Below are positions 5,331-38,335 of a stretch of DNA of 64,000 nucleotides, piece after piece. Below the pieces are notes generated by a model. It was not told the DNA's origin and did not search any database. It saw nothing but the letters and a program-made list of their open reading frames with translations. This stretch comes from a virus (lineage: Duplodnaviria; Heunggongvirae; Uroviricota; Caudoviricetes), in the IMG/VR virus record IMGVR_UViG_3300028833_000001, positions 255,171-319,170 of that record; one strand, written 5' to 3'. Every line of letters starts with the position of its first letter. The first letter of the stretch is position 1. The position numbers and the translations under genes are program-made.

Positions 5331-5338
5331 CTATTTAT
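5331..5338 (+). promoter_or_regulatory. Putative late promoter CTATTTAT
   Basis: Motif recurs in intergenic gaps upstream of virion genes; starts 26 nt before the ATG at 5357. Confidence 0.55.
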
Positions 5339-17237: not shown

Positions 17238-17262
17238 GGCGGCAATATTTGTCGCCTTTTTT
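17238..17262 (+). terminator. Intrinsic terminator
   Basis: ggcggcaa-tat-ttgtcgcc followed by T6. Confidence 0.8.
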
Positions 17263-17264
17263 AT

Positions 17265-17293
17265 TTGAAATTTATAAATGATTTAATTATATT
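17265..17293 (+). promoter_or_regulatory. Putative promoter TTGAAA-N17-TATATT
   Basis: Near sigma70 consensus; at the start of the glycan island. Confidence 0.5.
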
Positions 17294-17340
17294 TTTGTAT
17301 AAAAAAATAAAATGAAGAAGTACTTAAATATTTTATTGGT

Positions 17341-18267
17341 ATGTTAAACCAGTGTGTAATTGTAGTTCCAATTTATAAAGAGTTTAATGACTTGACAGAC
17401 GGTGAGCTAGCTTCTCTTGAACAGTTAAGAGTTGTACTGAGCAAAAGGTATGATATATGTTTTTTAACGCATAATTCAATAGATATAGCTCAATATAAAG
17501 TCATATTTAGTCACGAAACCAAGTTGTCAGTAATTTATGTAGACAAAAAACATTTTTTGAATCGAGAGAATTACGCTAAGTTTGTTTCAGAAAAAACGTT
17601 TTATGAATATTTTGATTCATATCAATATATGTTAATATATCAATTAGACGCTTTTGTTTTTTACGACAAATTGGAATATTGGTGTAGTTTAGACTATGAT
17701 TATATTGGCGCCCCATTCTTTATGGAAGATTTTGTTAAAGAAGGGAAAATGGTCGGAAATGGTGGGTTTAGTTTGAGAAAGATTTCTGCCATGATAAATT
17801 ATATTAATAAAAATGGAGATATAGACACGCCATATAGATGGCTTGATGATTTATTTTTCTCTATGAATTATGGGAATATTTTAAATATTCCGACAATTGA
17901 TATTGCTCGTAAATTTTCAATTGAATGCCACGTACAGGAAGAGTTTAAGCTGTCAGGTGAATTACCGTTTGGATGCCATGCGTTTGAAAAATATGACAGA
18001 AATTTTTGGTTGAAATATGTTCCATTATACGAAAATGCTTATAACGTTTTATTGTTATATTTACAAAATACAGATTCGTCAATGAATACCAAGTCTGATG
18101 CATGGCTTTATGATAAACTGTCTTTAGAGGCTTATTATAGTGGTCGTAAAAAAGATTCATTAATGTATGGCTTGATGGCTGAACATTTAAATCCAATTGA
18201 CAAAAGACTGAAAAATAATGTAGATATAATATTAGGACAAATATCTAAAAATGATTTAATAAATTAA
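17341..18267 (+). CDS. DUF5672-like glycosyltransferase-related protein with C-terminal TPR-like fragment
   Basis: VIVVPIYK, YMLIYQLDAFVF, YDYIGAP, VGNGGFSLRK, DDLFF, PFGCHAF. Confidence 0.8.
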   Translation: MLNQCVIVVPIYKEFNDLTDGELASLEQLRVVLSKRYDICFLTHNSIDIAQYKVIFSHETKLSVIYVDKKHFLNRENYAKFVSEKTFYEYFDSYQYMLIYQLDAFVFYDKLEYWCSLDYDYIGAPFFMEDFVKEGKMVGNGGFSLRKISAMINYINKNGDIDTPYRWLDDLFFSMNYGNILNIPTIDIARKFSIECHVQEEFKLSGELPFGCHAFEKYDRNFWLKYVPLYENAYNVLLLYLQNTDSSMNTKSDAWLYDKLSLEAYYSGRKKDSLMYGLMAEHLNPIDKRLKNNVDIILGQISKNDLIN

Positions 18268-18279
18268 GATTTATATAAT

Positions 18280-18348
18280 ATGAAGAAAAGTATGCTTATA
18301 ACAGGAAATGCTGGTCTTATTGGGTCAAGGATGGCCGATATGAAATAA
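18280..18348 (+). pseudogene. N-terminal remnant of an NAD-dependent epimerase/dehydratase
   Basis: Translates MKKSMLITGNAGLIGSRMADMK*, matching the extended-SDR TGxxGxxG motif. Not in the ORF track. Confidence 0.7.
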
Positions 18349-18376
18349 CAAAAGGAATATATGAATATTGGAAATA

Positions 18377-18643
18377 ATGAACGATAAAGATAAACTTTTA
18401 TTAATTTTTTATGTTGGTTTGAAACATATTCAACAGGAAGACAGACCAGCTTATTTTAGTGAAATATTACAGCATTTTACGAATTCATTTGACGAAACAA
18501 TAAAGCCTATATTGATAGCTGATGTTACATCTGACAAGACAAAAGTTGAATGTATTAATCCGAAACTTATTACAGAAGATGAGTATGTAAAAGTACAAGA
18601 AATCATAGACAAGGCTAATTACATTGTTGAAAAGCTAAAATAG
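18377..18643 (+). CDS. Hypothetical protein
   Basis: ORF track; ATG 18377 preferred over TTG 18368. Confidence 0.7.
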   Translation: MNDKDKLLLIFYVGLKHIQQEDRPAYFSEILQHFTNSFDETIKPILIADVTSDKTKVECINPKLITEDEYVKVQEIIDKANYIVEKLK

Positions 18644-18652
18644 AATATAGAC

Positions 18653-18988
18653 ATGAATGACATAACAGAAAGAGAAGTGGAGCAATATAAAAGGCTCACA
18701 CAATTATTTGAAAAATACAAAGACCATAAATTCAACCCGTTTGACAAGGTTCTTATATATTTCAAAACTAGAGGTGTTTCTAACGAATTTAGAATAGTCC
18801 CACATATTGTGTGGTACTATGACAAAGAAGAAAGCAAGCACGTTTTATATGACCCGACAATAAGGTTTACAGCCAGTAGCCTTATTCCGTTTGACGGAAA
18901 CGAGGAGTTTATAGGGTTTAAAGGCGACACTCGCGTTGTGTCTGAAATAAAGGCTGAATTGGAAGCCACAAATAAGGCCACAACGTGA
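18653..18988 (+). CDS. Hypothetical protein
   Basis: ORF track; contains FNPFDKVL...IPFDGNEEFIG. Confidence 0.7.
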   Translation: MNDITEREVEQYKRLTQLFEKYKDHKFNPFDKVLIYFKTRGVSNEFRIVPHIVWYYDKEESKHVLYDPTIRFTASSLIPFDGNEEFIGFKGDTRVVSEIKAELEATNKATT

Positions 18989-19037
18989 TGTAATGCGTGG
19001 TGGTAGTAATGAATAATAAATTTATTTAAAATAAGTT

Positions 19038-19814
19038 ATGATGGCTATTCTTTGTAAGAATAAGGATAATATATATTGGTTATTATGGGGTAATCCTGGT
19101 GATACGATTTATTCTTATAGTAGATTCACAAACCCAGAATCACTAGACAGTAAGTATTTTGACCAAACGAAACTTGTGGATATGCGACAATTTAATTGTA
19201 GATATTATGAAGGGTTCAAAGACAATAGACATCACATAACAACATCGTCTTACTATCGTATTATAATTCCATATCTTTCGTTATTGTTGGGTTTTAATTT
19301 TGATATTAATGATTTTGACAAAATCACGTACATAACAAATGAATATCCAAAACCATCTTATTTAATAAGTAGCGGTGGGGTTAGATTTGATTGTTCTTAT
19401 TTGTGGCCAAAAAAGGATTATAAATTTACGTTAGATATTGGCGGCGAGCGCGTTTGTGAACATGAGAATTTTGAATGCCTTACAAATGCAACAGATAAAT
19501 GGGATAAAAAATATGGTGCGTGTGGAACTGAATACCATAAACTTTTTAGAGGTTCTCATGAATCATCTGTCGTTATAAATGAAACAATTGACAGCGACAA
19601 ATCAATTTGTATTAGTGGCGATTCGTTCTTTATACCAATAGTTCCAATATTGGCTTGTTACTTTAAAGAGGTTGTATATTTAGACACAAGATTGGATGAA
19701 AAAGTACAAGTATCAAGAAAAAAATATTACGAAGGAAAGGTTTTTGATTTTGTAATAATAAGTTGTTGGGAGGGTAATTCAATTTTCAAATATTTGAAGT
19801 TTAATTTAGAATAA
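19038..19814 (+). CDS. SGNH/AlgX-AlgJ/DHHW-like protein, putative glycan O-acetylation factor
   Basis: C-terminal KSICISGDSF...PILACYFKEVVYLDTR pattern. Confidence 0.5.
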   Translation: MMAILCKNKDNIYWLLWGNPGDTIYSYSRFTNPESLDSKYFDQTKLVDMRQFNCRYYEGFKDNRHHITTSSYYRIIIPYLSLLLGFNFDINDFDKITYITNEYPKPSYLISSGGVRFDCSYLWPKKDYKFTLDIGGERVCEHENFECLTNATDKWDKKYGACGTEYHKLFRGSHESSVVINETIDSDKSICISGDSFFIPIVPILACYFKEVVYLDTRLDEKVQVSRKKYYEGKVFDFVIISCWEGNSIFKYLKFNLE

Positions 19815-19815
19815 T

Positions 19816-19843
19816 AAACGGATTTAAACAGTTCGTTTTTTTT
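19816..19843 (+). terminator. Intrinsic terminator
   Basis: aaacgga...ttcgttt followed by a T tract. Confidence 0.55.
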
Positions 19844-19852
19844 GTTTTATAA

Positions 19853-19881
19853 TTGACAATATTAGTTTTTATTTTTATTTT
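19853..19881 (+). promoter_or_regulatory. Putative promoter TTGACA-N17-TATTTT
   Basis: Perfect -35 with a 17-nt spacer, upstream of the methyltransferase-GT operon. Confidence 0.5.
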
Positions 19882-19897
19882 TTAATAAAAACTTAAT

Positions 19898-20515
19898 ATG
19901 AACATTTTTAATTATTTAATAGAACAAAACAACTACAAAAGTTATTTGGAAATTGGTTTAGATAACGCTGGAACGTTCAATAGTATAAACATAGAAAACA
20001 AATATAGCGTTGACCCTTATTTTATGACTGGCATGGATAATATACGAAGAGAAGAAGACATACCAAAATGTTTGACATGGAGAATGACGTCTGACGAAAT
20101 GTTTGAAACCGTAGCAAAAGACATGAAATTTGATTTAATCTATATTGACGGTATGCACACAGAAGAACAGGTTGGAAGAGATATAATAAACGGCTTAAAA
20201 CATTTAAACGTTGGTGGAAAGTTGGTTTGTGACGATTGCATACCAGCAAGCTACGAGGCACAAATAGTCCCTCGAATTCAAGGGTTATGGAATGGCGATG
20301 TATGGAAAGCTATTGTAATGCTTGACAAATATGGTGTGTCATATAGGACAATCAATGAAGCCTTTGGTTGGTGTGTTATAGATTATACTGAAAATTTATC
20401 AAATGTTAATCAATTACAAAAATGTACTATAACGTATGAAGAGTTTGAGCGTAATAAAAGCAAACTGTTACATATAATCACGATGGATGAGTTTATTGAG
20501 TTATATAAGAAATAA
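19898..20515 (+). CDS. Class I SAM-dependent methyltransferase (Methyltransf_24-like), putative sugar O-methyltransferase
   Basis: YLEIG, SVDP, TSDEMF, FDLIYIDGMH, LNVGGKLVCDD, WNGDVWK. Confidence 0.85.
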   Translation: MNIFNYLIEQNNYKSYLEIGLDNAGTFNSINIENKYSVDPYFMTGMDNIRREEDIPKCLTWRMTSDEMFETVAKDMKFDLIYIDGMHTEEQVGRDIINGLKHLNVGGKLVCDDCIPASYEAQIVPRIQGLWNGDVWKAIVMLDKYGVSYRTINEAFGWCVIDYTENLSNVNQLQKCTITYEEFERNKSKLLHIITMDEFIELYKK

Positions 20516-20552
20516 AATTACAAAATGGATAACATAAGAAAAGAAAAAAAAT

Positions 20553-21377
20553 ATGATTGAAAATTCAGTTATTGTGATACTTAAAGGTCGATTTGGTAAT
20601 ATATTATTCCAAATAGCGGCTGGGATGTCTTATTCTGTTAAATATAATAAAAATTTATATTTGTTTCCTGGTAATGGCGGTGGGTGGATTAATTATTATC
20701 CGTTATATAATGATTTCTTGAAAAATTTTAAGATAATTAATCAAGAAGATTTTGACAAAATAAACGGTGTGTTTTGGAATGAAACAGAACCAACACATGA
20801 GTATATAGAATTTCCAGATGTTAATAAACAAAATTTGATAATTGATGGATATTGGCAAGATTTAAGGTATATAGATTTTAACGTTATTTCACCTAAATTT
20901 ATGTGTCCATCTGATAAAATAGAAAGTATTAAGGAAAGACTTAATGTGAAAAATTATGATGATTACGTTTTTATGTCAATTAGACATGGCTTAGATTATC
21001 AAAGATATAATGTAGCACTATCTATGGAGTGGTTTGAAAATGTCTATAACAAACATTTTGAAAACAAAAAGGCAATAATAGCTACCGATGATATTTTATT
21101 TGTTGAAAAAAATCTAAATATACCAGACAAACGCATTATTCCAATGTGTGATGATTTTTATTTAAGTCATGAAAACCTATATTTAGGAACGTTTTTTAAG
21201 AATCAAATAATATCAAACAGTTCATATTCAATTTGGGGTGCATTGTTTCAAAACAATTCGGACCAAAAAATTGTTTACCCAAGTGATTGGTTTGGTGTAG
21301 GCTCTAAAATAATAAGTGTGCCAACAAAGGATAATTGGATTTGTGAAGGTGCAATTTTTGAAAATCATAAACAATGA
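20553..21377 (+). CDS. Glycosyltransferase family 11 (alpha-1,2-fucosyltransferase-like)
   Basis: GRFGNILFQ, GYWQ, SIRHGLDY (variant of HxRRGD), TDD, IISNSSYSIWGA, YPSDW. Confidence 0.85.
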   Translation: MIENSVIVILKGRFGNILFQIAAGMSYSVKYNKNLYLFPGNGGGWINYYPLYNDFLKNFKIINQEDFDKINGVFWNETEPTHEYIEFPDVNKQNLIIDGYWQDLRYIDFNVISPKFMCPSDKIESIKERLNVKNYDDYVFMSIRHGLDYQRYNVALSMEWFENVYNKHFENKKAIIATDDILFVEKNLNIPDKRIIPMCDDFYLSHENLYLGTFFKNQIISNSSYSIWGALFQNNSDQKIVYPSDWFGVGSKIISVPTKDNWICEGAIFENHKQ

Positions 21378-24300
21378 AAACAGCAATTTGTTGTATAGCT
21401 AAAATGGAAAACCACTATATTAGAGAGTGGGTGGAATGGTATAAAAACATCGGTGTTGACAATATTATTTTGTATGACAATAACGATATTGATGGTGAAA
21501 GATTTGAAGACGTAATAAACGATTATATAACAGATGGTTTTGTTATATTAAACAATGTTCGTGGTAAAGAAAAATGGCAAATGCCATCATACCAAGATTG
21601 TTACGAAAAATATTCAGACAAATATGATTGGATTGGCTTTTTTGATGCCGATGAGTTTTTGGAATTTGACAACAACAAAACAATTTCAGATTTCCTTAAT
21701 GAAGATATTTTCAAAGAAGCTGATTTCATAAAGGTTTGTTGGAAAAATTTCAGTGACAATGGATTGCTACGGGTTGAAAATGAAAATTATTCAATAAAAC
21801 GATTTACAAAGGTAATCGAAGAAAAATCTCAAACATCGTTTTTAGCTAATAGAAGTACAAAGATTATAATTAGAACAAAGTTGCCAAACTTTCATTTTTA
21901 TATGGAACCAGGTGGAGAGCATGGGTGGCATCTTCCGTTCAAATCTATTGATTGTCATGGTAATCCTTGCAATAACAATACACAAGTTATTGGTGAAAGA
22001 ATTTGGGACAATGCTTGGTTAAATCACTATCGTTTTAAGACTATGGAAGAATATTGCAAACATAAGCTTGTTAGATTATACCCAGATGTTGATAAAAAAA
22101 CAGGGGAGTCTTGGTTAAACAAGAATGAATTTTTTGATTATAATGAGTGGACTCAAGAAAAAGAAAATTTATATAATAAAATTATGGACGTAAAGGAACA
22201 AAAATTAGTATGTACGATTTTAAATTACAAACACGATGATAATGCATTGAGATTATATAACGCATTGAAAAATCGTTTTGTTACGTATCTTATAGATACA
22301 AATTACTTGGATAACGGTGGTAAGTGTCCATTTGATAAGAATGATGAGCATGTTATTCTTGAGCATAATTTATATAACGGTGGTGGTTTTATTAAGGAAT
22401 ATGAAATTTTATGTCAAGAAAACGGAAATGTTGCGTTTGAGATAAATTCAGATGTTGAGTTTGATGATGCTAATTTGAATAAATTGTTAGATGTTATAAA
22501 TGATGTAAAATACGATAAAAGAATTGGCGTTTGGGAACCGTCTGCTAGACAAGGTTCTATGTGCAATGGCTCAACACAGTTGTTGTTGACAAATATCCAT
22601 CAGTATAATCAAGGCACAAACTTCATGAGAAAAGTAAAGTGCGGAGAAGGCTGGTGTATGTTAGCTAAAAAAGAGGTTTTAGATATGGTAATACCGCATC
22701 TAGATTATGAAAACAATAAATATGGGTGGGGTGTAAATGATGCATATAATAGGGCGGCAAGAAAATTAGGCTTGGATGTTGTAATAGACGATAGGGTTAT
22801 GGCTTATCATCCAGCTGGAACTGGATATTCCCATCAAGAAGCTGCTGCTGAGTATGAGCGTTTTAAGTCTAGGTTTCAAGAGTTAGGATTAGATGAGCCA
22901 CAACCAAAATCTCCTAACGAAATTAAAACACTTATTTGTTGCATAGGAAAGAACGAGAATAGATATATTATAGAATATGTTAATTGGTATAAACACATAG
23001 GTGTGACAAATATTTGTTTATATGACAACAATGACGTCGATGGTGAAAGGTTTGAAGATATAATCGGAGATGATATTAACTCTGGATATGTCATTTATAA
23101 TGATTGGAGAGGAAAGAAAGATTGCCAGATAGATGCATATAATGACTGTTATCAACGTTTTGGCGGAGAATACGATTGGATTTTATTTATAGATTGTGGA
23201 GACGAATATCTTGAATTGACTAGATGTAAAACAATTGGAGAATATTTGGCGATGCCACAGTTTGTTAATTTTGATATGATACATATTAATTTAATGACAA
23301 TTGGCGATAATGGTTTGACAAAATATGATGATAGGCCGTTGCGTGTAAGATTTCCAGAAGAAATATCGCATAACACCAAAATAGCTTATGATTTTCCAGA
23401 AAACTATCATATTTCGTCAATTGTTAGGGGTGGAAGAAATGATGTTGTGTTTAACAAGGTTGGGTGGTCACACACGCCAATTTCAGATAATTTGAGGTGT
23501 TGTAACAATGTTGGTTTTACGGTTGATAGCAAATCTCCGTTTTGTAAGGATGACTACACGTTGGCATATTTTAAACACTACACAACGAAGACGGCTGAGG
23601 AATATGTGGAAAAAATGAAACGAGGGTTTCCAGACCAAATGTGGGATGGCAGCAGAATTAAAGAACTAATCGAAACAAGGTTTTTTAGGACAAACGTTGT
23701 AACGCAAGAAAAAATAGACATATTCAAGGAGGCATTTGATTTGGATTTCAGTTATTTGTTACCAAAAAAATACAATGGAGAAAAAAGTAACGATGTAAAA
23801 ATTTTCTCTTTATGTTATGATAAGAAGAATTTCCAATTCATTGATGATGCGTATGTTACTCCATTGCAGGTTGGAGCAGCAAATGGGAAATATGTTTGTG
23901 ACCTAAAGGATAATACTGGAGACAATATTTCTGGTATAAATTATTTCTTTATAGAAAACACAGGCACTTATTGGATTTGGAAAAACGTTCATGGGGCAAA
24001 ATATAAGGGACAAATGCAATATAGAAGGCCAATGTTCGGTGTGAACGAAAATATGGATATTGACACTATATTTGAACAATATGACGTTATTACATGTTCT
24101 CCGTTTTACCACAAAGAACACAATACGCCAACTCCAGAAGAACCTATGTGCATTCCAGCGAACACTGTTGAAGAGGGTTATGGTTTTTCCAATTGTATTG
24201 ATGATTTGTATGTTTTGGAAATGGTTATAAAGTTTTATTTTCCAGATTATTATCCAGATTATGTGAAATACATAAAAGAAAGTGATAGGTTATATTACTC

Positions 24301-24619
24301 AAACGGTTTCATCATGAAATCCGATGATTATGACAGATATGCCGAATTTTTATTTGCATGTTTAAATGTATATGCACAATTAACTGGGATAAGAACGCCA
24401 GATGATTTAGTAAACCATGTAAAATATAATTTAGAAGTCGGAAAATATAAAAGATACCAGCCAAACGAAATTAACGACGCGATTTTAAGGTGGCAATGTT
24501 CAATTTGCGGATTCTTGAGCGAGAGAATATGGACATTATGGGTGCAGCACAATTTCAGGCATCCAAGAATATTTGAATTGCCATACATAAAGATGGAACC
24601 AGACAAAATGTATACGTAA
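21374..24619 (+). CDS. Four-domain glycosyltransferase: GT92/GT2-like, GT-A, GT92/GT2-like, DUF4422-like
   Basis: Duplicated CCIxKxEN...LYDNND domains; central NSDV domain; C-terminal TPLQVG, DNTGDNIS, ENTGTYWIWKN, QYRR, GFLSER. Confidence 0.85.
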   Translation: MKTAICCIAKMENHYIREWVEWYKNIGVDNIILYDNNDIDGERFEDVINDYITDGFVILNNVRGKEKWQMPSYQDCYEKYSDKYDWIGFFDADEFLEFDNNKTISDFLNEDIFKEADFIKVCWKNFSDNGLLRVENENYSIKRFTKVIEEKSQTSFLANRSTKIIIRTKLPNFHFYMEPGGEHGWHLPFKSIDCHGNPCNNNTQVIGERIWDNAWLNHYRFKTMEEYCKHKLVRLYPDVDKKTGESWLNKNEFFDYNEWTQEKENLYNKIMDVKEQKLVCTILNYKHDDNALRLYNALKNRFVTYLIDTNYLDNGGKCPFDKNDEHVILEHNLYNGGGFIKEYEILCQENGNVAFEINSDVEFDDANLNKLLDVINDVKYDKRIGVWEPSARQGSMCNGSTQLLLTNIHQYNQGTNFMRKVKCGEGWCMLAKKEVLDMVIPHLDYENNKYGWGVNDAYNRAARKLGLDVVIDDRVMAYHPAGTGYSHQEAAAEYERFKSRFQELGLDEPQPKSPNEIKTLICCIGKNENRYIIEYVNWYKHIGVTNICLYDNNDVDGERFEDIIGDDINSGYVIYNDWRGKKDCQIDAYNDCYQRFGGEYDWILFIDCGDEYLELTRCKTIGEYLAMPQFVNFDMIHINLMTIGDNGLTKYDDRPLRVRFPEEISHNTKIAYDFPENYHISSIVRGGRNDVVFNKVGWSHTPISDNLRCCNNVGFTVDSKSPFCKDDYTLAYFKHYTTKTAEEYVEKMKRGFPDQMWDGSRIKELIETRFFRTNVVTQEKIDIFKEAFDLDFSYLLPKKYNGEKSNDVKIFSLCYDKKNFQFIDDAYVTPLQVGAANGKYVCDLKDNTGDNISGINYFFIENTGTYWIWKNVHGAKYKGQMQYRRPMFGVNENMDIDTIFEQYDVITCSPFYHKEHNTPTPEEPMCIPANTVEEGYGFSNCIDDLYVLEMVIKFYFPDYYPDYVKYIKESDRLYYSNGFIMKSDDYDRYAEFLFACLNVYAQLTGIRTPDDLVNHVKYNLEVGKYKRYQPNEINDAILRWQCSICGFLSERIWTLWVQHNFRHPRIFELPYIKMEPDKMYT

Positions 24620-24624
24620 AAATC

Positions 24625-24647
24625 AGCGGCCAACCAGCCGCTTTTTT
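24625..24647 (+). terminator. Intrinsic terminator ending the glycan island
   Basis: agcggc-caacca-gccgct followed by a T tract. Confidence 0.8.
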
Positions 24648-24702: not shown

Positions 24703-24710
24703 CTATTTAT
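24703..24710 (+). promoter_or_regulatory. Putative late promoter CTATTTAT for the baseplate operon
   Basis: Immediately upstream of the gp25-like gene. Confidence 0.6.
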
Positions 24711-24725
24711 TGATATAAAATCTGA

Positions 24726-25121
24726 ATGGTTATGGGTAAGACTCAAAAATATGGAATAAAATATCCTTTTTCGTCAAATAATTCTGATAATGTGTATTTG
24801 GACACGAATGATACGTTTTCAGAAAGTATTAAATCACAACTATTGCATTTGATTTTCACAGAAAAAGGACAGAGGATTAGAGACCCAGAATTTGGCACTG
24901 GATTGATTAATTTTATTTTTCAGCCAAATGACGGAGATACTATAGGCAGTATTAAAAACGAAATAATAACGCAGGTAAATAAGTATATACCAGGATTAAT
25001 ATTCGATGAAATTAAAGTGTATAAGCAAGATGATGAATTATCGAATATTATTGTATCTATAACGTATTCAATAAAAAAAGGAAATAAATTAGACACAACA
25101 ACTGTGGCAGTAAAATTATAA
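24726..25121 (+). CDS. Baseplate wedge / sheath initiator, gp25/GPW-like
   Basis: GIKYPF, IKSQLLHLIFTEKGQRIRDPEFGTGLINFIFQP. Confidence 0.9.
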   Translation: MVMGKTQKYGIKYPFSSNNSDNVYLDTNDTFSESIKSQLLHLIFTEKGQRIRDPEFGTGLINFIFQPNDGDTIGSIKNEIITQVNKYIPGLIFDEIKVYKQDDELSNIIVSITYSIKKGNKLDTTTVAVKL

Positions 25122-25128
25122 TTGTAAC

Positions 25129-27063
25129 ATGGATAAACAAATTTCATATTTAAATAGAACGTTTAGTGACTATAAGGAAGCTCTTATTGAGTTCTCAAAA
25201 AAATATTACCCAGACTTAAATGTAACTTACAACGATGCGTCTGTGGCTTCTTGGTTGATAGACCTTAATGCGTCTGTAGCTGACAATCTTTCTTATCATA
25301 TTGACAGGGTTTACCAAGAAACAAATTTAGATAGCGCGCAAGAACGAAGCTCGTTGTTGAATATGGCCAGAAGTTGTGGGGTTAAAGTTCCAGGGCCAAA
25401 GGCTTCTATGGCGGAGGTCAGGTTTTATTGTGTTTTGCCAACAAATAACGAAGGAAATGCCCCAGATTATACATATGCGCCAATCATAAAACGTGGGACT
25501 AGATTGTCTTCTGCAACGCAAATTTTTGAGGTAATGGAGGATGTTGATTTCTCTGAACAATTTAATAACGACGGTATTAGTGACAGAACATATAAACCTA
25601 ATAGAAACAGTAATAATGTTATCACTGGTTATACTGTCACAAAATTAAGTGTTGTTGTGGCTGGTGAATCTAGGGTTTTTAGGCAGATAATTAACACTCA
25701 AGACGTTAAACCGTTTATGGAAATTGTTATTCCGTACAAAAATGTGATGAATGTTGAGTCGGTATTAGTTGTTGATGGCACTGGAGACATGGATGTTCCA
25801 ACTTACGGGGCGTTTTATACAGAGATTGAATCTTGTGATAATGGTACAAGGTTTTTTGAGGTTGATAGTCTGGCGGAAGGTGAAAGATGGGGCGACGCTA
25901 TCGACCCAACAAGTAAAAGGGCCTTAAAATACAAATATGGTTATAGCAGCGACGGTTCTGTTGCAGCAACTTATTGTGTAACAAAGGGCGAATGGAAACC
26001 AGTGCACCATAAATTTATTACAGAGTACACTGATAGTGGTTATATGAAATTAACATTTGGTGCTGGTGTTAATTTTCAACAAGAGACTCTAAGCGAAGCT
26101 ACAAATATGACTGATTTTGCTAAATGGCAAATTTCCAGAGCATTAAATAACGATTCATTAGGTGTACTTCCAACAGGAAACAGCACAATGTTTATTCTTT
26201 ATAGGATTGGCGGAGGAACAGCAAGTAACGTTGCAGAGGGTGCAATTAATAGGATATCGTATTTGAACGCGGAATATCGCGGCCAAAACCAAGAATACAT
26301 TAATCAGATAAAGAAAACAATTAGGGTTAGAAATACAACTCCATCTGTATGCGGTAAAGACGCCCCGTCAAACGAAGAATTAAAATACTTAATAAAATAC
26401 AACAAAGCGGCACAGGAAAGATGTGTTACTGTTAAGGATTATATTGATAGAATTTTAAACTTGCCGCCAAAATATGGCACGCCATTTAGGGTTGGAGTCA
26501 CTGAAGAAAACAATAAAATAATGATTTATCTTCTTGGATTAAATAGCAACGGCAAATTGGACTCAAATCTTCCTATAACATTAGTCAAGAACATTGAGAA
26601 ATATTTGTCTCATTATAAGATGATAAACGATTTTGTTGAAATTAAATCTGGTAGAATAATTAATTTGGAGTTTGAGGCTGATATTATAATAGACAAAAAT
26701 TATAATAGTTCAGATGTCGTTTCAAATGTTATTAACACCATTAAGAATTACATGGATATCAACTCTCATATGATGGGTGAAGAAATCTATATTGGTGACT
26801 TGGAAAAGGAGATTTCAAAGGTTGACGGTGTTATAAATTTAATTGACTTATCAATATACAACATAACATCAAATGGCTATTCCAGTACCCAAATTTCTCA
26901 GCCAACAGTGGAATTTGATTCAAACAGTGTCTCTATTATAAGCGAAAATGAAGAGAAAATAGATTTAGATGCTACTGATGGGATATTATATAATGATGGT
27001 GATTGTATGATGGAGATTAAAAATCCTTCAATTAATATTAGAATTAGGGTAAAGGAAAAGTAA
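25129..27063 (+). CDS. Baseplate wedge subunit, T4 gp6 / baseplate J-like
   Basis: YLNRTFSDYKEAL, LDSAQERSS, LTFG, YRIGGG, GKDA, QERCVTVKDY; follows gp25. Confidence 0.88.
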   Translation: MDKQISYLNRTFSDYKEALIEFSKKYYPDLNVTYNDASVASWLIDLNASVADNLSYHIDRVYQETNLDSAQERSSLLNMARSCGVKVPGPKASMAEVRFYCVLPTNNEGNAPDYTYAPIIKRGTRLSSATQIFEVMEDVDFSEQFNNDGISDRTYKPNRNSNNVITGYTVTKLSVVVAGESRVFRQIINTQDVKPFMEIVIPYKNVMNVESVLVVDGTGDMDVPTYGAFYTEIESCDNGTRFFEVDSLAEGERWGDAIDPTSKRALKYKYGYSSDGSVAATYCVTKGEWKPVHHKFITEYTDSGYMKLTFGAGVNFQQETLSEATNMTDFAKWQISRALNNDSLGVLPTGNSTMFILYRIGGGTASNVAEGAINRISYLNAEYRGQNQEYINQIKKTIRVRNTTPSVCGKDAPSNEELKYLIKYNKAAQERCVTVKDYIDRILNLPPKYGTPFRVGVTEENNKIMIYLLGLNSNGKLDSNLPITLVKNIEKYLSHYKMINDFVEIKSGRIINLEFEADIIIDKNYNSSDVVSNVINTIKNYMDINSHMMGEEIYIGDLEKEISKVDGVINLIDLSIYNITSNGYSSTQISQPTVEFDSNSVSIISENEEKIDLDATDGILYNDGDCMMEIKNPSINIRIRVKEK

Positions 27064-35942: not shown

Positions 35943-38335
35943 TGGAACACATTAAAATTAATCTTGTAAATCCAGTTTATGGCGTTCGTGAAATGCCAAT
36001 ACATTGTTTTTTTATTGAAAACAATATGTTAAAGATAGTTTTTGTTGACGATGAAAACCATAAAATGAATATTGGACAGCATTTAACGTTTGTGCGGTAT
36101 ATTTACGACGATAACGACATATCTACATCTATTCAAGATAATATAGAAGTAATTTCGTTTGATAAATACTATGATAATGGTGTTGAGTACGATTGCGTCT
36201 ATACAACAATACCGCAAAAACGTCGTTTATCGCTAGATAGGACTACGACAGAAAATGTTGTATATTGGGATAAAATTGATAACAGGTATGTTGTTGTTGA
36301 TAATCCGACATTAGGATTTTATGATTATGTTTTCGATGAAAATAATGTTACTGGAATTGATTTATCGTCATTAACAAACGAAGAAATCGATTCTCTTCCA
36401 GAGCATTTATACACAATTGAGGAAAGTATTTACGGTATTAGAAAATTCAAAACGCTGTTCCCAGCTGGAACAATACCAAGTTCAGATATACTGACTTCTA
36501 TTATTATAGAAGCTATGACTAATGAAGGCATAGAAATTCCAGAAGAATATTTAGGAGATAATATATATGATTATATCGATGAGGGCCTTGGTGGCGATAA
36601 TTATGATGGAATGGATTCTACTTTGGACCATTTATACGATATAGGCGCATTTGACATTGATAGATATGACGAATATTTCGTTTTAACGTTTAATGAAAAA
36701 CATGATATCTATCAACAAGATATCGATTTACTGGCCAGCAGCCAAATGACTGGAGAATATTATATTAATGTGTACGATTCAGAAATGAGTAAAATTGGTT
36801 ATTTTCTTGCATTGCATATTCCTTACGTCGATAATTTGCTTCCAGTAGATAAAAAAACGACTTTAACTGAATGGGTTGAACAAACATGCGGTATGTTTGA
36901 TATGGATGGAAATCCATACGATATTACGTATCATAAATATGTTTTTGCCCCAAACAGATTTAGCAAAAAAAGTATTATAGTTAGAAAAGCTGAAACTGGA
37001 TATGTCAGTGAATCACCTATAGATACACCACAAACACTTAATATAAAAAAAATAGAATATCTTTTAGAGCATGGTTTCTGGTTTGAGCCAGCATATACAC
37101 CGTTTTTTTATACAACAACAATTAATAACTCAGAATGGTGCACAATGTGGGACGATATATGGTGGGATTATTATGAAAACAACAACGGAGCTATCCCACA
37201 AAAAAACATTTGGTTTAACAGTGGTAATACACATGTGGCTCTTACAATAGATAATAGTTATTGGAATGTTCCGACATTATTTTCATCTAATGATGAATTT
37301 ACGTCGCTTAATACCGACGAAGACGGTGTTTATAATTTCATTGAAAATACGATATCAAACTCATTACCAAAAGCTATTGATTTTGAAAGAGTTAAATATT
37401 TTCCAGTCATTTTTAATGAAACGCCATCTGGAAACTACACTAAAGCAAGTGAAATAATATATAGGCTACATTTCAGACAGAGAGTCAAAAAAAATGGGCA
37501 AGAAGTGTCTAATATTCCAGAAGAATATAGGCCATATGAAGATGGTTGGTATGTTAATCAAGAATCAGGAAGTACTGTGTGGTGGAATGAAATGCAATAC
37601 TCTTTAACAAAACTAACCAATTCAGAAATGACGGCTTTTGTTTTATCGCAAAACAAAAAATCCGATATGTTGGGGTATCTTAATTTTAATGATGATGATG
37701 TGTTTTTTAGCAAAACTAAACTAACAAAATCTTTTGTTAGATTTTCATTCTACACATCAAAAGACCCTATAGAGCAAAAACTTCTTTATTATTCTACTTC
37801 GTTTTTTGATATTCATGAATTAAGGCAAAAATATATTAAACTTTTGATAAAAAACGGTAGAAAACCAGAAAAAAATGAGCGACCGTTTGTGCTAACTGAT
37901 GATAATGAAAATAGACTTGACAGTACAATAAAATTAACTGATGAACATAATTCAGATAAGTCCAGCGATGGTTTCAATATATACCTATTTTTAGAAGATG
38001 CTCCAATAGAAAATAGTGAAAAAACTATTTATATGAAAGTTGAATTTAACCATGCTGGGAACGGAAAAACTATACCAATGATATTATGGCCTAAAAACAA
38101 TAACGGAAATTATGTCAGTCTTACAACGTCTAATTTTCTTAGTAGTCTTTACATTCCAATTATAATTAAATACATTAATGGAGAATATGTGTATGAAATA
38201 GTTGGTTCACAAGTAAATGGCGATATAATTGAGGTTAGTTTATTTGAGCCAAAACTTGATATAGAAGGTGACGATTTCGTACCAACAACTGGTAATACAG
38301 ATTCAACGAGTGATACACAAACACAAAACACATAA
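35942..38335 (+). CDS. Putative virion structural protein
   Basis: TAATG coupling with the upstream gene places the start at 35942; operon context. Confidence 0.6.
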   Translation: MEHIKINLVNPVYGVREMPIHCFFIENNMLKIVFVDDENHKMNIGQHLTFVRYIYDDNDISTSIQDNIEVISFDKYYDNGVEYDCVYTTIPQKRRLSLDRTTTENVVYWDKIDNRYVVVDNPTLGFYDYVFDENNVTGIDLSSLTNEEIDSLPEHLYTIEESIYGIRKFKTLFPAGTIPSSDILTSIIIEAMTNEGIEIPEEYLGDNIYDYIDEGLGGDNYDGMDSTLDHLYDIGAFDIDRYDEYFVLTFNEKHDIYQQDIDLLASSQMTGEYYINVYDSEMSKIGYFLALHIPYVDNLLPVDKKTTLTEWVEQTCGMFDMDGNPYDITYHKYVFAPNRFSKKSIIVRKAETGYVSESPIDTPQTLNIKKIEYLLEHGFWFEPAYTPFFYTTTINNSEWCTMWDDIWWDYYENNNGAIPQKNIWFNSGNTHVALTIDNSYWNVPTLFSSNDEFTSLNTDEDGVYNFIENTISNSLPKAIDFERVKYFPVIFNETPSGNYTKASEIIYRLHFRQRVKKNGQEVSNIPEEYRPYEDGWYVNQESGSTVWWNEMQYSLTKLTNSEMTAFVLSQNKKSDMLGYLNFNDDDVFFSKTKLTKSFVRFSFYTSKDPIEQKLLYYSTSFFDIHELRQKYIKLLIKNGRKPEKNERPFVLTDDNENRLDSTIKLTDEHNSDKSSDGFNIYLFLEDAPIENSEKTIYMKVEFNHAGNGKTIPMILWPKNNNGNYVSLTTSNFLSSLYIPIIIKYINGEYVYEIVGSQVNGDIIEVSLFEPKLDIEGDDFVPTTGNTDSTSDTQTQNT

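Follow-up and report, generated by a model that had tools for sequence, protein, structure and literature searches.

The DNA analysed here is a 64,000-nucleotide (nt) window of an uncultured phage, positions C1:255171-319170 of a 361,445-bp IMG/VR virus record (IMGVR_UViG_3300028833_000001) whose completeness is given by CheckV as complete, and the feature under study is a group of glycosyltransferase (GT) and glycan-modifying genes lying directly before the baseplate genes. Coordinates with the prefix C1 refer to the whole record (G000), those without prefix to the window, and L-numbers denote IMG/VR loci. The window has a GC content of about 33% and the majority of its genes are on the + strand. 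Seven + strand open reading frames (ORFs; g1 to g7 below), with short spacers and a 4-nt overlap between g6 and g7, are enclosed by two terminator-like hairpins with T-runs. One of these (17238-17256, +) closes a ribonucleotide-reductase gene and forms the left edge of the island, and the other (24625-24642, +) forms the right edge; 6 terminator-like sites were found in the region against 2.3 ± 1.7 expected. On the 5′ side are genes for thymidine kinase, a RecA-like protein, PhoH, a 5′-3′ exonuclease, a DnaB-like helicase and the ribonucleotide reductase, which is of class I/II type. On the 3′ side the baseplate wedge genes follow directly, gp25-like at 24726-25121 (+) and gp6/Baseplate_J-like at 25129-27063 (+), and then genes for very large structural proteins. 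The island, in our judgement, very probably encodes a soluble pathway for glycan assembly and decoration.

The last gene of the island, g7 (21374-24619, +), encodes a protein of 1081 amino acids (aa) in which Pfam matches and fold prediction together delimit four GT domains. Domain A1 (aa 1-262; 21374-22159, +) is a GT-A domain of GT92/GT2_4 type with a Pfam match at aa 5-170 (69-84 bits for PF01697 and 52-76 bits for PF13704). Domain B (aa 263-515; 22160-22918, +) has no Pfam match and no PDB match by sequence or profile and is placed in no named family. An AlphaFold2 (AF2) model built from six homologues (pLDDT 83.8) nevertheless predicts that it is a GT-A glycosyltransferase fold, since all PDB matches listed by Foldseek are GT-A enzymes (LH3, heparosan/hyaluronan synthases, WrtF and ppGalNAc-T; TM-score 0.5-0.58, E about 1e-7). 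Domain A2 (aa 516-800; 22919-23773, +) is a second GT-A domain of GT92/GT2_4 type (PF13704 at aa 526-622, 35.9 bits, cut-off 27.5), and domain D (aa 801-1081; 23774-24619, +) is DUF4422/GT111-like (PF14393 at aa 817-1004, 112.4-117.6 bits, cut-off 25) and matches WbbM (PDB 6u4b) with E = 6e-14. Across 15 full-length homologues of g7 the invariant residues are D91-A-D93-E94 in A1, D360, D472-D473 and H479 in B, D607 and D610-E611 in A2, and several Asp of the DUF4422 domain. The acidic residues occupy positions expected for binding of nucleotide sugar and metal. A lack of catalytic residues in the GT domains would have spoken against an initial annotation of this DNA; all four domains of g7 keep invariant acidic motifs.

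The first gene, g1 (308 aa; 17341-18267, +), belongs to DUF5672 (PF18922, Pfam 146.5 bits), a family on which there is virtually no literature and which has an activity on record for no member. A profile search against the PDB by sequence only gave nothing useful, and its fold is therefore taken from prediction. The AF2 model from 30 homologues (pLDDT 85.3) finds glycogenin first among PDB structures (Foldseek E = 2.6e-7), followed by the UGGT catalytic domain, GlyE and AgtA, and on this model the fold is GT-A of GT8/glycogenin type. In BFVD its nearest structures are giant-virus DUF5672 proteins, several of them fused to other sugar enzymes. The motif in g1 reads L-D103-A-F, without the second Asp of the canonical D-x-D, and D103, D170 and H213 are invariant. 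Next to g1, at 18280-18348 (+), there are 22 codons and a stop left of a nucleotide-sugar epimerase of the short-chain dehydrogenase/reductase (SDR) type. Its N-terminus matches the 333-aa epimerase of relatives (N-termini in L010 and L009) and keeps the T-G-x-x-G-x-x-G nucleotide-binding motif. The intact gene occupies the same spot in L010, L009 and L023, and at the DNA level similarity to L010 starts again at 18339, which corresponds to a point some 38 nt short of the end of the L010 epimerase gene; therefore, the gene has undergone an internal deletion of about 0.9 kb. The stub had been overlooked in the initial annotation, as had the two small genes that follow it, g2 (91 aa; 18368-18643, +) and g3 (111 aa; 18653-18988, +), which match no family and are 88% and 91% identical to their L010/L018 copies.

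Two products are candidates for decorating a glycan. g4 (258 aa; 19038-19814, +) has no Pfam match and is placed among AlgX/DHHW/PatB-like SGNH-fold proteins by its Atlas structure (TM-score 0.77 to ALGX/DHHW clusters, with which language-model features agree) and by a profile of ten homologues, which finds PatB1 of B. cereus in the PDB (5v8d, E = 0.002) with the alignment running over the GDS motif. H66 and G-D195-S196 are invariant in the 10 homologues. The position of the triad Asp (D-x-H) is R64 in g4 and R, N, D or E among relatives, so that Ser and His are kept and the Asp is not. From the structural model g4 is a candidate glycan O-acetyltransferase or esterase, without signal peptide. 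AlgX/PatB-type enzymes have an extracytoplasmic location and an MBOAT partner, whereas g4 has no signal peptide or N-terminal helix and a hydropathy scan of the genome gave no large polytopic protein, no MBOAT family search having been made; if g4 is an acetyltransferase, it would have to take its acetyl group by a different donor route. g5 (205 aa; 19898-20515, +) is a class I S-adenosylmethionine (SAM) methyltransferase (Methyltransf_24, Pfam 35.2 bits, cut-off 26.3) with a weak PDB match (6g7d), and may be a sugar O-methyltransferase.

g6 (274 aa; 20553-21377, +) is GT11-like. Its score for PF01531 (23.4 bits) is just under the cut-off of 23.9, a PDB search gave chance matches only, and it matches PHROG 2644 ('glycosyltransferase') with 76.5 bits. 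Its positional counterparts in L010 and L009 score above the cut-off for GT11 (73.5 and 47 bits) and are only 28-29% identical to it. For GT11 we take the motifs to be G-x-x-G-N-x-x-F-Q, H-x-R-R-x-D and S-N-S-x-F-S-W-W. In g6 they read G-R-F-G-N-x-x-F-Q, S-I-R-H-G-L-D-Y and S-N-S-S-Y-S-I-W-G-A, so that the first and third are kept while in the second the second Arg is replaced and one residue is inserted (S-V-R-R-G-D-Y in L010).

The PHROGs database labels the family of g5 'DNA methyltransferase', and the island borders the helicase, exonuclease, ribonucleotide-reductase and thymidine kinase genes. Both would fit a pathway in which the glycan is built on modified phage bases as a protection against restriction, as on hydroxymethyl-pyrimidines, and multi-sugar DNA glycans made by phage GTs are reported (Pyle et al. 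2024, as cited in PMC12619734). We consider this highly improbable. The only gene of the thymidylate-synthase family codes for a bifunctional dihydrofolate reductase-thymidylate synthase (DHFR-TS; Pfam 324.9 bits, best PDB matches thymidylate synthases); therefore, a dCMP/dUMP hydroxymethylase that could supply the acceptor base is missing, other routes such as deazaguanine not having been searched. The phage also has a thymidine kinase, and we know of no DNA glycosyltransferase in the families GT92, GT11, DUF4422, DUF5672 or AlgX-like. It may be noted separately that the fused DHFR-TS (539 aa; C1:336918-338537, L017:982-2601), whose best solved matches are protozoan bifunctional enzymes, is an odd arrangement for a phage.

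Multi-domain homologues of g7 number at least 237, on contigs of up to about 400 kb, and their architectures were mapped for the 120 that were listed. Among these the C-terminal pair, a GT92-like A2 followed by DUF4422, is constant, and the N-terminal modules are interchangeable: A1-B (14 cases), DUF5672-B (29 cases, and 4 more with an extra N-terminal extension), a second DUF4422 (38 cases), a module of about 360 aa of no family together with DUF4422 (16 cases), or B alone (7 cases). The use of DUF5672 as an alternative module of the same fusion is the best argument that DUF5672 is a transferase of the same pathway. In 18 of the 19 IMG/VR loci that hold the core, it stands, as in the window, directly 5′ of gp25, gp6, a small ORF and a protein of about 1,970 aa. 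The opposite flank in the relatives consists of a helicase and a reductase, with anaerobic NrdD in some. The genes between these flanks vary by phage and include GT2, DUF4422, GT92-like, GT10, GT11, AlgX-like and SDR epimerase genes, and also fusions of TOD1/MUCI70 with TupA-type ATP-grasp, a hexapeptide acetyltransferase and an FkbM methyltransferase.

Compared with the closest IMG/VR relative (L008/L018), g7 is 94% identical in A1, 91% in B, 68% in A2 and 64% in DUF4422, which suggests that the gene is a mosaic formed by recombination at the boundary of B and A2. The conservation of g2 and g3 against L010/L018 (88-91%) is like that of the N-terminal half of g7 (91-94%) and well above that of its core domains (64-68%). 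From the fixed place across the clade and the mosaic structure it follows that the island is an old, resident and recombining locus and no recent import. A recent foreign insertion had also been considered in view of the GC content, which falls to 0.29-0.30 at 18-22 kb from about 0.33 in the surrounding DNA, and was rejected, since the dip is small and the locus is ancestral to the clade. As an observation on one relative, L030:1949-6408 (IMGVR_UViG_3300001598_002233) carries two fusions of TupA-like ATP-grasp with TOD1/MUCI70 beside a hexapeptide acetyltransferase, suggesting decoration of a glycan with amino-acid or acyl groups.

The motif CTATTTAT is present on the coding strand of 43 upstream regions in the genome against 1.9 expected, often in the form AACTATTTAT. 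It usually lies 15-45 nt 5′ of the start codon, mainly ahead of structural genes, and is probably the late promoter element of the phage. In the window it is found at 5331, 9663, 10581, 24703, 45843, 57424 and 60779, and at 38025 within a gene. The copy at 24703-24710 (+) is 15 nt before the gp25 start, and a spacing of 15-25 nt before gp25 is seen in the window and nearly all relatives. The motif is absent from the island, and none lies ahead of the island glycosyltransferase genes; therefore, the island is probably not transcribed with the late genes. Such a position outside late transcription neither fits nor contradicts the enzymes being ready when virion proteins appear. The initial annotation had given the island host-type promoters in place of this motif. 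The motif and its absence are real, whereas the sigma-70-like matches in the island (62 against 54.8 ± 6.0 expected) are at chance level, and a sigma-70-type 'host promoter' was dropped as evidence. Elsewhere, TTGGCAC(G) is located 19-87 nt 5′ of 16 minus-strand genes in one block, C1:110797-151885 (enrichment of TTGGCACG about 26-fold). Its sequence is similar to the -24 element of sigma-54 promoters; alternatively, it may be a phage-specific early/middle promoter.

Most of what was first annotated at the island itself is borne out: both hairpins are recovered on the + strand, the assignments of the DUF5672, SGNH/AlgX-like, methyltransferase, GT11-like and four-domain GT genes are supported by Pfam, PHROG, NCBIfam and structural evidence, and the count of six GT-like domains and two candidate decorating enzymes is correct. 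A Kyte-Doolittle scan of all seven products agrees that none has an obvious signal peptide or transmembrane helix, the sole hydrophobic stretch being aa 189-215 of g4, around the conserved GDS motif. Therefore, the products of g1 to g7 are soluble and cytoplasmic. That the pathway is cytoplasmic and yields a decorated oligosaccharide is a sound reading, given the soluble products, conserved acidic motifs, GT-A folds, methyltransferase and SGNH enzyme.

As to the sugars that such a pathway would use, the phage has an RmlA equivalog at C1:36977-37813 (360.8 bits, cut-off 360.65) and an RmlD equivalog at C1:239425-240306 (267.1 bits, cut-off 224), the latter alone among tail genes and beside a papain-like peptidase gene. 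No RmlC was found in the phage genome, and RmlB is lacking because RmlD is the only match to PF01370. By this family evidence the phage itself supplies only the first and last steps to dTDP-L-rhamnose, and the four-enzyme RmlABCD set is incomplete. The genome has no match to UDP-galactopyranose mutase (Glf, PF03275), which the host could supply, and no GDP-fucose genes. With RmlA and RmlD of its own, rhamnose or a related dTDP-6-deoxyhexose is better supported than fucose or galactofuranose, and dTDP-L-rhamnose is likely to be among the donors; any donor could nevertheless come from the host. The fucosylation that the initial annotation thought possible is not specifically supported, with g6 under the GT11 cut-off, its Arg-rich motif altered and GDP-fucose genes lacking, nor is the galactofuranose that it had linked to DUF4422, with no mutase found. 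The RmlA gene belongs to a second sugar cluster at C1:34515-37813 (L045:3516-6814), which also has a GH16 glycoside hydrolase, a GT2-TPR enzyme and an 86-aa ORF.

The GT2-TPR enzyme (363 aa; C1:35281-36372, about 0.6 kb 5′ of RmlA), with a C-terminal TPR repeat, gives a first clue to the acceptor. Its best solved relatives are GmaR (2.7e-18) and SunS (5e-16), with ThuS also among them. Homologues with 34-42% identity over the catalytic domain are located within the islands of L023, L028 and L010/L018; for the two tested, L023 and L010, SunS is the top curated family (45-52 bits, far under the equivalog cut-off). Their presence in the islands of relatives points to a protein- or peptide-directed type of transferase in the island gene pool. 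These nearest solved relatives modify flagellin (GmaR, an O-GlcNAc transferase of Listeria) and bacteriocin peptides (the S-glycosyltransferases SunS and ThuS), which would also suit a different cytoplasmic target, be it host proteins that are redirected or disarmed, a secreted glycocin-like peptide or a small molecule. That the expression signals are not of late type, and that g2 and g3 are small, strongly conserved in-island proteins without assigned role, can be counted for such a target as well. We nonetheless hold it to be improbable, since six GT domains and two decorating enzymes imply an elaborate oligosaccharide while inactivating modifications as a rule attach a single sugar, a surface-exposed product accounts better for hypervariable content at a fixed place next to structural genes, and no precursor-peptide gene was recognised.

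Collagen-repeat genes give a second clue. They are found within or beside the island in five distinct relatives, and the three of these that were scanned all have an endosialidase-chaperone (S74) domain typical of phage fibres, one of them following the late motif. The phage under study has its own collagen-like genes at C1:358138-361445 continued at C1:1-~4100, at C1:329119-332190 and at C1:182380-184203. The proteins have Gly-(Ala/Pro)-Thr repeats with Thr at the Y position in 63-66% of triplets. The largest of them spans both ends of the record, with a terminal endosialidase-chaperone domain at C1:3798-3956, and therefore the linear record is probably broken inside a repeat gene. Also, S-[AG]-x-T is above the residue-shuffled expectation (z > 3) in 14 of the 136 ORFs of at least 250 aa. 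Half of these (7 of 14) belong to the window, where six are large ORFs 3′ of the baseplate genes; others cluster at C1:14-28 kb, a stretch in which several genes have the late motif. The over-representation is thus seen mainly in probable virion proteins, with small counts.

The genome-wide hydropathy scan returned no candidate flippase, polymerase, ligase or initiating phosphoglycosyltransferase, and no polytopic candidate above 219 aa; a 205-aa ORF has five hydrophobic segments and every other ORF at most three. Scans of the island likewise gave no initiating phosphoglycosyltransferase, Wzm/Wzt exporter or ligase, with no Wzm/Wzt family search made, and host machinery could serve. These results bear on remodelling of the host envelope, whereby the transferases would extend or cap an undecaprenyl-linked O-antigen, capsule or cell-wall intermediate at the cytoplasmic face of the membrane, a host transporter and ligase would export it, and the changed surface might, for example, block superinfection or adsorption of progeny. 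Soluble multi-domain polymerases with a chain-end methyltransferase are a hallmark of ABC-transporter-dependent O-antigens (WbdA/WbdD, WsaE). AlgX/PatB-type enzymes acetylate polysaccharides, and the island is without the late promoter motif. The only characterised relative of DUF4422 is the galactofuranosyltransferase domain of WbbM, a soluble bifunctional O-antigen polymerase (GT111/DUF4422 and GT8; D-galactan I) of Klebsiella pneumoniae O2a (PDB 6u4b; PMC12269835). Like g7, WbbM joins DUF4422 to another GT-A domain without membrane helices, and its partner is a GT8 domain, the GT8-like DUF5672 replacing other modules in homologues of the phage fusion. WbbM differs in that it polymerises a lipid-linked O-antigen and needs UDP-galactofuranose from Glf, which the phage does not have; its DUF4422 is N-terminal and that of the phage fusion C-terminal, and the phage fusion has four domains and no indication of polymerisation.

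Similar clusters in cyanomyoviruses are conventionally read as acting on the envelope. Those of the T4-like cyanophages P-SSM2, S-SCSM1 and S-SCSM2R, described as 'lipopolysaccharide (LPS)' or cell-wall-modification clusters (PMC12801897), resemble the island in having many GTs (GT2, GT10, GT11, GT25) and epimerases in a large myovirus with an unproven target. They belong to phages of marine cyanobacteria, and a fused four-domain enzyme with constant core and a fixed pre-baseplate position are not described for them. We judge an envelope target to be unlikely here, though by no means negligible. The genome lacks, by the hydropathy scan, candidates for phosphoglycosyltransferase, flippase, ABC transporter, polymerase and ligase, and the AlgX/PatB-like g4 has no signal peptide whereas its bacterial relatives act outside the cytoplasm. 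Also, with a T4-like virion module and nothing seen that would point to lysogeny (no search for integrases was made), lasting serotype conversion is unlikely. The baseplate-side position, the collagen-like fibre genes in the islands of relatives and the GmaR/SunS-type transferase fit a protein target better.

We give about even weight to the reading that the island product decorates the virion proteins of the phage itself by cytoplasmic glycosylation, probably with rhamnose. Under it the island enzymes would act one after another, with a single sugar contributed by each domain and drawn from nucleotide-sugars of host or phage, and the product would be a short hetero-oligosaccharide with dTDP-L-rhamnose likely among the donors. 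The chain would then be O-methylated and O-acetylated (or de-acetylated). Ser/Thr residues of the virion proteins would be the sites on which it is built, ahead of particle assembly or in its course, the best acceptor candidates being tail and fibre proteins and the Gly-X-Thr collagen-like fibres. The first sugar would perhaps come from the GmaR/SunS-type GT2-TPR enzyme, and phages with different islands would then differ in the glycan coat of their particles.

The initial annotation had already proposed virion proteins as the target. It is favoured by the location next to the baseplate genes, by the collagen genes within the islands of relatives, by the GmaR/SunS-type enzyme and by the lack of export genes, and several points weigh against it. 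The target is argued from gene context, and both glycan and acceptor are predicted. The lack of CTATTTAT before the island transferases leaves no obvious co-regulation with virion genes. The closest characterised relatives of DUF4422 (WbbM) and of g4 (AlgX/PatB) act on polysaccharides and not on proteins. The phage's own collagen-like genes and its GmaR/SunS-type enzyme are far from the island, and the in-island collagen genes of two relatives are rich in Gly-Pro-Gln and not in Thr. On its other flank the island borders replication and nucleotide-metabolism genes just as directly as it borders the baseplate genes, and the small S-[AG]-x-T counts could reflect fibre architecture instead of a glycosylation site.

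Among systems whose target is established or proposed on the particle, the chlorovirus enzymes and mycobacteriophage glycosylation are by analogy nearest in working principle, while WbbM is the nearest characterised system in sequence. PBCV-1 makes its capsid glycan with A111/114R, which has three GT domains, and A064R, which has two rhamnosyltransferase domains and a methyltransferase (PMC7826918, PMC9614988). The likeness lies in soluble multi-domain viral fusions with a domain of about 200-300 aa per sugar, in methyltransferase decoration and 6-deoxyhexoses, in a cytoplasmic process independent of host secretory glycosylation, and in the frequency of DUF5672 in giant viruses. The PBCV-1 enzymes are proteins of a eukaryotic virus with a proven capsid N-glycan, and the comparison with them is one of working principle and not of sequence. 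The island differs from them also in its families (GT92-like, DUF4422 and new GT-A), in having the methyltransferase as a separate gene and in the shuffling of N-terminal modules among phages. For the mycobacteriophages Che8, Corndog and Myrna, virion O-glycosylation is reported (Freeman et al. 2023, as related in PMC12363180 and PMC12619734). As there summarised, phage-encoded cytoplasmic GTs near structural genes are proposed to place a glycan on particle proteins, which is the same principle. By the same summaries they differ in using one to few single-domain GTs, with glycans demonstrated on the C-termini of capsid and tail-tube proteins, in siphoviruses of Actinobacteria. The island has six GT domains with decorating enzymes in a jumbo phage of myovirus type, its candidate acceptors are fibre and collagen-like proteins, and its glycan is a predicted one.

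Bacillus BclA is a further comparison, offered as analogy only. The Thr residues of its collagen-like Pro-Thr-Gly repeats carry an O-linked rhamnose trisaccharide whose cap is 2-O-methylated anthrose (PMC6222408). The phage likewise has collagen-like filaments with Thr in most triplets, rhamnose-supply genes (RmlA, RmlD) and a sugar methyltransferase candidate; its collagen-like genes are outside the island, and glycosylation of its fibres is a prediction. A more specific picture is tentative and in our view more doubtful than credible. In it a whole clade of jumbo phages would carry a variable, serotype-like coat of an oligosaccharide that contains rhamnose and is methylated and acetylated, with its first step due to a GmaR/SunS-type enzyme and the rest built by soluble 'assembly-line' GTs of shuffled domains on Thr of collagen-like Gly-X-Thr fibres and of tail-fibre proteins. 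If true, such a coat would be the phage counterpart of the BclA exosporium nap of Bacillus and of the fibril glycans of giant viruses, and recombination at domain boundaries would generate glycan diversity.

What is new compared with the known systems is a four-domain fusion with constant core and shuffled N-termini, which keeps its place before the baseplate genes throughout a large clade and is associated with a GmaR/SunS-type enzyme and with collagen-like fibres. Should the particle carry the glycan, glycosylated virions would no longer be peculiar to mycobacteriophages and giant viruses; the trait would be conserved and diversifying in jumbo phages, with a bearing on sticking to mucus or host surfaces, on escape from immune or bacterial recognition and on antigenic variation. 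If instead the host envelope is the target, a virulent phage would have in the island a means of surface remodelling of unusual complexity. The fusion pairs a constant core with N-terminal modules that can be exchanged, and is in this respect a natural library of soluble GT combinations; it would also give DUF5672 a first functional setting.

With respect to its wider relationships, a megablast search of the island against 50,697 phage records gave no match, and the only tblastn matches were to GT92-like genes of one domain, carried by Lak megaphages (about 41% identity) and short gut contigs; therefore, the island has no cultured relative in the phage collection. The gp6-like protein shares 26-27% identity with those of Flavobacterium and Microcystis myoviruses. 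An attempt to derive the host from the phage RmlA was abandoned, as its genome-contig matches of 50-53% fall in unrelated phyla and are uninformative. In a more distant group of loci, L013 (IMGVR_UViG_3300028048_000204), L014 and L015, GT92-like genes of one domain each stand in tandem, and a DUF5672 gene is present. At L013:8393-9082 the match to DUF5672 contains 4 in-frame stops, and long ORFs are few there, which may point to reassignment of a stop codon, as known from some Lak-type phages.

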